In this document: positions 6,352 through 6,948 of the stretch, piece after piece
Layout: every line of letters begins with the position of its first letter
How positions within the stretch are numbered: the stretch's first letter is position 1
Assembly: GCF_003018115.1 (NCBI RefSeq)
Contig: NZ_CP027457.1
Length of the DNA: 64,000 nt
DNA from: Escherichia coli
GTDB taxonomy: Bacteria; Pseudomonadota; Gammaproteobacteria; Enterobacterales; Enterobacteriaceae
Strand: one strand, 5' to 3'
Notes under the pieces: generated by a model
Databases searched by the model: none
Told to the model about the DNA's origin: nothing
What the model saw: the letters and a program-made list of their open reading frames with translations, nothing else
Made by a program: the position numbers and the translations under genes

Positions 6352-6820
6352 AATGACGCCCTCTAGTGGTTTCTAAACTATCACCACCGTAAGGTTCCAA
6401 TCATCGGGTGGTGAGACGCACAGGGTTGGAACTACCGGGAAACCGACCGGCGAGCGTTTCAGCTCCCCCAGGCGCCCCACCATAATTCAGATGTACGCGT
6501 GCATACGACAATAAAAAACACGCTCGCGGTGTATGTCTGTCGCGGTCTCTAACCGGGGTTCCAATCCCGACAACTGATTTTGCGGTTGCGCGGGGAATAT
6601 GGCCCCGGAGGACAAAAACTGTCAATGGGCAAAAATTTTCGTTATCAGGAATGTATAAAATTAATTCAATTGAGCAAAAAATCCTTTCTGCAAAACTAAA
6701 AAAGATTTCAATAAAATCAGACAGTTAAAAACACTAAAAAACGGTATAAAAAAGTACCTCAAAATCCTGTTTTTTCTTTCAGATACAATGCCTTATTGCA
6801 TTTTTTAAAACCTGCCAGTG

Positions 6821-6934
6821 TGGTACATGGATATCGATACCACCGCCAATTATAAGCTAGGCGGTGCACAGCAACACGATAGCGTACGCCTCGATCCGTG
6901 GGTGTTTATGTTCTCAGCAGGATATCGTTTTTAA
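6821..6934 (+). pseudogene. ompW: 3' fragment of ompW (last ~37 codons) left at the prophage junction
   Basis: Translation WYMDIDTTANYKLGGAQQHDSVRLDPWVFMFSAGYRF* matches the C-terminus of E. coli OmpW as recalled; no upstream ompW coding sequence, prophage DNA instead. Confidence 0.75.
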
Positions 6935-6948
6935 TTCCGCACAAAAAC

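Follow-up and report, generated by a model that had tools for sequence, protein, structure and literature searches.

The left end of the window (the whole 64-kb stretch of Escherichia coli DNA that was analysed) is occupied by prophage genes. On the plus strand these begin with the C-terminal 865 aa of a lambda J-type tail tip protein (18–2615), whose gene starts before the window; it carries the Pfam domains Ig_J, Ig_J_second, Phage_Tail_Tip and Ig_GpJ_C, and corresponds to gpJ in related genomes. It is followed on the same strand by the prophage lom gene, specifying an Ail/Lom outer-membrane protein (2645–3307; Pfam Ail_Lom, E = 3e-51, in agreement with the annotation), by a tail fibre gene with an N-terminal domain and collagen-like repeats (3459–4646; Pfam phage_tail_N and Collagen), and by a gene for a DUF4376 protein with a weak likeness to tail-fibre assembly proteins (4715–5386; Pfam DUF4376 and a weak Caudo_TAP match). 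An earlier note on this DNA had the tail module running up to an AT-rich block at 6620–6810, but this was mistaken, as an Ant-like ORF6N pseudogene (6351–5794) and the C4 and isrK RNAs (6404–6602) intervene, all on the minus strand. The ORF6N-domain (Ant/anti-repressor-like) pseudogene was recognised by comparing its translation with an intact paralogue of a relative, and has an in-frame stop at codon 38 followed later by a change of frame; its broken ORFs (5828–6159 and 6193–6366) gave no Pfam match, and the gene is annotated as 'frameshifted; internal stop' in the genome of E. coli 07-4299. Since this gene is a pseudogene, the prophage may be defective.

The RNA genes were assigned with Rfam models. 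The C4 antisense RNA (6404–6487, minus strand; RF01695) scored 61.6 bits, above its gathering score of 45, and isrK (6513–6589, minus strand; RF01394) scored 60.4 bits against a gathering score of 50. The a1/b1 targets of C4, which overlap isrK on the same strand (6550–6602; RF03163), scored 38.6 bits, under the gathering score of 46.7. RNA folding of the isrK/C4 stretch was uninformative (z = −0.22), and it is the Rfam models that carry the evidence. A consensus scan found a sigma-70-like promoter on the minus strand at 6596–6625 (TTGACA, an 18-nt spacer and CATATT; 10 of 12 positions matching), which is placed such that it could start the isrK/C4 transcript and which fits the start of the isrK model at 6589. 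The arrangement is reminiscent of the immI-type c4 with ant of P1 and P7, and of the isrK of Gifsy-1, in that C4 and isrK, both above their gathering scores, are followed on the same strand by an ORF6N/Ant-like gene. It differs from them in that the module adjoins a prophage junction without being part of it, and in that the ant-like gene is a pseudogene. When a phage collection was searched at the DNA level, 6380–6609 was found to be kept in 239 records, mostly Stx phages that integrate elsewhere, indicating a separate mosaic module that owns the left edge of the AT-rich block. In the prophage of the relatives described below, the stx position is a gap of 1.86 kb in which no Stx-sized ORFs were found.

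To the right of the AT-rich block, the plus strand at 6821–6934 carries the native 3' end of ompW, consisting of 37 codons and a stop (6932–6934), displaced from the rest of the gene and lacking its own start codon and promoter. On inspection, the only start-like signal within it is an in-frame GTG that has no obvious ribosome-binding site. The residues encoded at 6821–6931, WYMDIDTTANYKLGGAQQHDSVRLDPWVFMFSAGYRF, are identical to residues 176–212 of K-12 OmpW, and 120 of the 121 bases of 6816–6936 agree with K-12. Pairwise and three-way alignments found no ompW sequence upstream of the fragment, the identity to K-12 ending at 6816, so that translation and alignment agree on what had been read from the sequence alone, namely the last ~37 codons of ompW with no ompW before them. 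The equivalent fragment in a relative is labelled by PGAP as 'OmpW family, incomplete, missing N-terminus'. From 6816 onward the identity to K-12 spans yciE, yciF, yciG and trp, and the sequence remains core chromosome without interruption for ~55 kb. Past the junction, yciE is the first chromosomal gene that is intact (6994–7500, minus strand; from the ORF list and the annotation), and the yciE terminator that had been proposed to follow the ompW fragment was recovered on the minus strand at 6970–6948 as an intrinsic terminator with a 10-bp stem, six G-C pairs and a T-run. Measured from the trpA stop (8692), the ompW stop is ~1.76 kb away and the crossover core ~1.88 kb, close to the 1.7 kb given previously for the distance to the trp operon. 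For annotation, the junction marks the boundary between chromosome and prophage, all DNA to the left of 6816 being mobile, and the 37-codon piece of ompW is best annotated as a displaced remnant, which is no proof that the strain lacks OmpW.

An attR junction within ompW

The stretch 6816–6936 is almost certainly the attR (P-O-B') of a lambda-like prophage that a tyrosine integrase inserted within the 3' part of ompW, at the site used by PPompW and OI-57/CP-933O. An attR-side prophage junction within ompW was what the earlier note had proposed, and it is upheld by the identity to K-12 from 6816, by the same junction in relatives, and by the published site. The closest complete genome is that of E. 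coli 07-4299, which is 99.9% identical over 6300–7100, and JNE151685 is 98.2% identical over 20 kb of the window, with the same Int and OmpW proteins as 07-4299. In both genomes the junction closes a lambdoid prophage of ~52 kb, at the opposite end of which lie xis, int and the 5' part of ompW, the gene being complete there (217 aa). The matching attL and integrase, suggested as something to look for at the other prophage end, are therefore present in these relatives, and with identities of 98–99.9% it can be presumed that the genome of the window has its own attL, int and xis beyond the left end of the window.

The Int protein of the relatives contains an arm-binding domain (Pfam PF09003, Arm-DNA-bind_1, E = 6e-22) and a tyrosine-recombinase domain (PF00589, Phage_integrase, E = 7e-17), and their Xis contains the Pfam domain Exc. 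This Int is 96.5% identical to the integrase of PPompW and ~51% identical to lambda Int. A search with the Int protein led to the GenBank records named 'Enterobacteria phage PPompW_...' (LC567818–LC567841), and this was the only route by which records with an ompW-type att were reached, all of them prophage-derived. At the DNA level, 6380–6860 retrieved from the phage collection only the isrK/C4 block (positions 1–230 of the query), and no record with the AT-rich arm and the core.

The crossover was delimited by a three-way alignment of attB (K-12), attL (07-4299) and attR (the window). The attR leaves host sequence at 6815 and the attL leaves it at the equivalent of 6844, so the single block common to all three is 6816–6843 on the plus strand, and strand exchange must lie within this 28-bp common core, CAGTGTGGTACATGGATATCGATACCAC. 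The crossover had been expected at 6790–6825; this overlaps the core at 6816–6825 only, and the actual interval is slightly further right. The switch between phage and host sequence occurs in the same 28-bp block in 7/7 attR and 6/6 attL sequences, representing three lineages. Within the core is a perfect inverted repeat, GTGGTA (6820–6825) and TACCAC (6838–6843), the two halves 12 bp apart, as would be expected if an overlap region were bordered by two integrase sites of the core type. The core also forms the beginning of the 121-bp att defined in the literature for PPompW, which corresponds to 6816–6936 on the plus strand. The two copies of this att form an imperfect duplication with 79% identity in the relatives, and in LC567822 they are entered as two 121-bp repeat_region features ('duplication due to insertion') that begin with the same core.

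The site itself has been described before. Nakamura et al. 2021 (PLoS Pathog; PMC8112680) reported a lambda-like prophage in ompW with 121-bp attL and attR, used PCR to detect excised circular prophage genomes in the O145:H28 strains 12E129 and 112648, determined the sequence of the attP regions, and found that phages can carry ompW-like 121-bp sequences, among them attB-in-PP_3 with 81% identity to ompW. In a further paper, OI-57/CP-933O of O157:H7 EDL933 was found to be inserted in yciD (ompW), and ompW was termed a hot spot. The prophage of the window shares with PPompW (O145:H28) and OI-57/CP-933O the insertion point and the P arm of the attachment site, conserved between CTGCAAAAC and the core, and its relatives also share the P' arm and the three 9-mers in it. 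The cargo beside attR is different, consisting of tail fibre genes, the Ant-like pseudogene and isrK/C4 in the window, and of the T3SS effectors espO, nleG and espM in O145 and O157. The 21-bp attB-in-PP_1 of PPompW was absent from the window, even with three mismatches allowed.

Junctions of this kind are very common. An attR-type junction (at least 80% of 6686–6880) was found in 1424 of 5426 complete E. coli genomes (~26%), and an attL-type junction in 1699 of the same 5426 (~31%). The attR junction in ompW is real and had been correctly read, at a site already published, and the current understanding is unchanged, with ompW (yciD) listed for OI-57/CP-933O and the att defined in 2021. What can be added to the known site are the 28-bp crossover interval with its inverted repeat, a 9-mer that marks the limit of the conserved attP and is a candidate arm-type site, and the probable double use of the AT-rich block, as an att arm and as promoter region for the adjoining small-RNA/anti-repressor unit.

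The AT-rich block and the arms of the attachment site

The AT-rich, A-tract segment noted previously at 6620–6810 stands out clearly. No other 191-bp window of the 64 kb (mean GC 51.3%) has a GC content as low as its 25.7%, and it contains 14 runs of A or T that are four or more bases long, compared with 4.8 ± 1.8 in composition-matched shuffles, none of 5000 of which reached 14. An alignment of the attR sequences of seven prophages belonging to three lineages (CCUG 73778 and the window; O111:H21 and ST648; O157 Sakai, strain 12690 and O145 PPompW) identified 6686–6815, on the plus strand, as the P arm of attP, conserved among ompW-integrating prophages. Conservation begins at 6688, exactly with the 9-mer CTGCAAAAC (6688–6696, plus strand), and runs to the core, and the lineages are unrelated further left. 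The arm is ~84% identical to the O157/O145 version, and its 9-mer is invariant in all seven sequences. Only two exact copies of CTGCAAAAC occur in the 64-kb window. A search for further copies in the P arm with up to two mismatches gave only low-complexity near-matches (6734 and 6869), which were rejected as sites.

The same 9-mer recurs at the other end of the prophage. Three tandem copies of CTGCAAAAC are found in the P' arm of all six attL sequences, one copy reading CTGCAAAAT in two of the lineages. They follow closely on the ompW stop, shortly before int reaches its 3' end, and are kept while the spacers between them vary across the six attL. The repeats, taken together with the PF09003 domain and the likeness of Int to that of lambda, lead us to read CTGCAAAAC as a candidate arm-type integrase site, probably present once in P and three times in P'. 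The P arm also contains an IHF-like site on the plus strand at 6715–6727, AATCAGACAGTTA, with one mismatch to the consensus WATCAANNNNTTR, and in the O157/O145 versions it is a perfect match, AATCAATCAGTTA. The match is not significant alone, since 38% of arm shuffles yield one, and no IHF consensus match was found on the P' side; as an arm element, this sequence is suggestive.

Taken together, the right two-thirds of the block (6686–6815) appears to behave as an att arm, and the left third as the promoter region of the minus-strand isrK/C4/ant unit. The expectation that arm-type and IHF sites would be found in the AT-rich block thus finds support for 6686–6815, with its 9-mer and IHF-like match, but 6620–6685 is better read as the isrK/C4 promoter region.

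The whole block could instead be mainly a transcriptional control region, combining a promoter and curved upstream DNA for the isrK/C4/Ant unit and including no att arm. This is a possibility to be taken into account but we regard it as rather unlikely. Speaking for it are the promoter-like site (6625–6596, minus strand) with a perfect −35 hexamer inside the block, the position of isrK and C4 immediately downstream on that strand, and the lack of conservation left of 6686 among ompW-integrating prophages. The larger part, 6686–6815, is nevertheless conserved along with the core despite quite different neighbours, which are effector loci in O157 and O145 and remnants of tail-fibre-assembly/DUF4376 genes in ST648 and O111:H21, and it opens with the 9-mer that is repeated beside int. 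Conservation of the arm and the shared 9-mer would limit a control region to ~6596–6685, leaving two functions side by side.

Two other explanations concern the junction as such. It could have arisen by homologous (RecA-type) recombination between ompW and the 121-bp ompW-like sequence of the phage, with no part played by Int, and the ~121 bp of phage sequence, 79–81% identical to ompW, would be a possible substrate. Against this, the seven attR and six attL sequences of three lineages all switch in the same 28-bp block, which has an inverted repeat like those of tyrosine-recombinase sites and is flanked by an arm-binding integrase and arm repeats, and a second identical block, GATCCGTGGGTGTTTATGTTCTC, is never the point of switching between phage and host sequence when attL and attR are compared. 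Excision to a circular form has also been reported for prophages in PPompW-carrying strains (PMC8112680), and recombination of the RecA type is accordingly judged very improbable. Alternatively, the 121 bp could be a phage-borne, ompW-like 'attB-in-prophage' copy, which would make the junction internal to a cluster of prophages. Such copies do exist (attB-in-PP_3, 81% identical to ompW; PMC8112680), but the 121 bp of the window agree with K-12 at all but one base and run directly on into yciE, yciF, yciG, the trp operon and ~55 kb of core chromosome, and the chance that this explanation is correct is close to nil.

Integration by Int at a lambda-like attachment site is the reading preferred here. 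The architecture of the attP/Int/Xis/IHF system of lambda is well established. The ompW prophages resemble lambda in the order attL-int-xis ... J-attR and in an Int with an arm-binding N-terminal domain and a tyrosine-recombinase domain, and probably also in having three tandem arm-type repeats in P' beside int and at least one in an AT-rich P arm with an IHF-like site. They differ from lambda in the core and arm sequences, in an attB that lies inside a coding sequence, lambda's being between gal and bio, and in P' repeats that lie ~125–165 bp from the core, past the substitute gene end and farther away than those of lambda.

On this model, attP would consist of an A-tract-rich P arm of ~130 bp (6686–6815), the 28-bp core (6816–6843) identical to ompW codons 174–183, a diverged phage copy of the rest of the ompW 3' end, and a P' arm in which three CTGCAAAAC repeats stand in tandem directly ahead of the 3' end of int. 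The single 9-mer of P and the three of P' would be bridged by Int with the inverted repeat GTGGTA/TACCAC of the core, IHF-type bending of the A-tract arm assisting in this, and strand exchange would take place inside the 28-bp core; the protein–DNA contacts and the exact overlap region are predicted here from sequence patterns. Integration would then produce a complete but chimeric ompW at attL, with the host 5' part and the phage 3' end, in which the last extracellular loop is replaced and the last beta-strand is unchanged, and would displace the native 37-codon 3' end to attR, the arrangement seen in the window.

The chimeric ompW and its last loop

At the attL of 07-4299, ompW is annotated as complete (654 bp, 217 aa). 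The encoded protein is identical to K-12 OmpW through residue 184, after which NYKLGGAQQHDS is swapped for KYKSDGRKLAKGSYSDN, which is five residues longer, and the two proteins have the same end, VRLDPWVFMFSAGYRF. The phage-borne ompW end of this closest relative has a 15-nt insertion that gives the length of 217 aa. Chimeric OmpW proteins have either this length (07-4299 and JNE151685) or 212 aa (O157, O145 and 81009). The chimera matches the Pfam family OmpW over its full length, and also the E. coli OmpW structures 2F1T and 2MHL. The question raised earlier of whether ompW receives a replacement 3' end from the phage can be answered positively for the relatives, in which attL holds the complete, chimeric gene. 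Although the prophage is inserted within ompW, the gene in these relatives is thus restored and not destroyed. A full-length ompW elsewhere, with the fragment being a duplication, had been named as something that would speak against the junction. Taken literally, this is what the relatives have, but it argues against inactivation of ompW and not against the junction, as a complete ompW at attL and an imperfect duplication are the normal result when a substitute 3' end arrives with the phage.

Compared with K-12, the final 17 codons of the phage copy show four synonymous and no non-synonymous changes in 07-4299, and three and none, respectively, in O145:H28. That only synonymous changes occur in these codons, a small sample, suggests that selection acts on the substitute end to maintain a functional OmpW. 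A comparable situation is that of phage 21 and e14, which reportedly (Campbell and co-workers; Hill et al.) integrate in the 3' end of icd and carry a substitute end. In both cases insertion is in the 3' coding part of a gene, a diverged copy of the displaced end keeps the gene intact, att is a long imperfect duplication, and the phage-borne copy is biased to synonymous changes. The ompW prophages differ in the host gene and the core, and in that the replaced segment includes a surface loop with changed amino acids.

The swap alters only the stretch between the last two beta-strands, both flanking strands being identical. We take this stretch to be the extracellular loop L4 of the 8-stranded barrel, following the accepted topology of OmpW. 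The loop alleles found were NYKLGGAQQHDS in K-12, the phage-type KYKSDGRKLAKGSYSDN and KYKSGVTTVKDS, and a third loop-coding sequence in STEC409. Strain CB6837 combines an attR side of the window type with an attL of the 121-bp type, and the loop variant at the attL of the window's genome is for this reason not inferable from its attR. It could be speculated that the phage-borne 3' end goes beyond a neutral repair patch and brings about lysogenic conversion of a surface structure. We consider this unlikely, and the data give it no preference over ordinary loop variability. If it were true, ~30% of complete E. coli genomes would display an OmpW loop chosen by a phage, recognition by colicin S4 or by OmpW-dependent phages could change, and attR (6844–6880) would silently preserve the native loop, which excision would restore.

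Lineage differences at the att sites

The locus of strain CB6837 (L014, NZ_CM144248.1) has the same attR side as window 6300-7100, with 99.1% identity, and its attL carries a different phage-type ompW 3' end, namely the 121-bp type, which lacks the 15-nt insertion. Since a window-type attR side is paired in this strain with a different ompW end at attL, the modules that flank the att sites reassort. At the attL of strain STEC409 (L015, NZ_CP041422.1), the loop-coding region of the phage-borne ompW is a third variant, and the match to attB, the uninterrupted K-12 ompW, continues for a few bases beyond the core, through ACCACCGCCA. 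Identity between attL and attB reaches further in STEC409, and so the apparent core length varies by lineage.

In strain CCUG 73778 (L006, NZ_CP041337.1), positions 3001-3320 hold a P arm of the window type joined to the initial 22 bp of the core, with two mismatches. Next to this partial core lies an ompW fragment of 141 bp, which directly abuts trpA; yciE, yciF and yciG are missing. Such an arrangement could be a deletion beside the att site, or another type of junction.

The immI-like unit beside the att arm

The att arm is directly adjoined by an immI-like unit on the minus strand (window 6404-6625 and 5794-6351), which is made up of a promoter-like site at 6625-6596, isrK together with the a1/b1 targets at 6602-6513, a C4 antisense RNA at 6487-6404 and, at 5794-6351, an ORF6N/Ant-like gene. 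This gene is a pseudogene in which codon 38 is a stop codon and the reading frame changes. Window block 6380-6609 is common to 239 phage records, mostly of Stx phages.

Related prophages and the remaining window

Between yciC and ompW, the close relatives 07-4299 (L003, 43880-43969) and JNE151685 (L011, 3075-3164) carry a short pseudogene fragment annotated as 'YkgJ family cysteine cluster protein', which is not found in the K-12 annotation of this interval. The JNE151685 prophage also has a 1.86-kb stretch (23803-25667) without annotated genes in the place that stx occupies in Stx phages, and a matching gap is present in the 07-4299 prophage. It is flanked by a gene for an HTH-domain protein downstream of Q, and by tRNA genes and a nanS-p-type esterase. 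An ORF check of the JNE151685 gap detected no Stx-sized ORFs, only short ones that contain a repeated HREAPGTM motif.

From trp to psp/ycjM, the remainder of the window is ordinary core chromosome on the evidence of a comparison with JNE151685. Rfam matches in the window include the trp operon leader (15244-15337, minus strand) and the sRNA STnc180 (27772-27974, plus strand).
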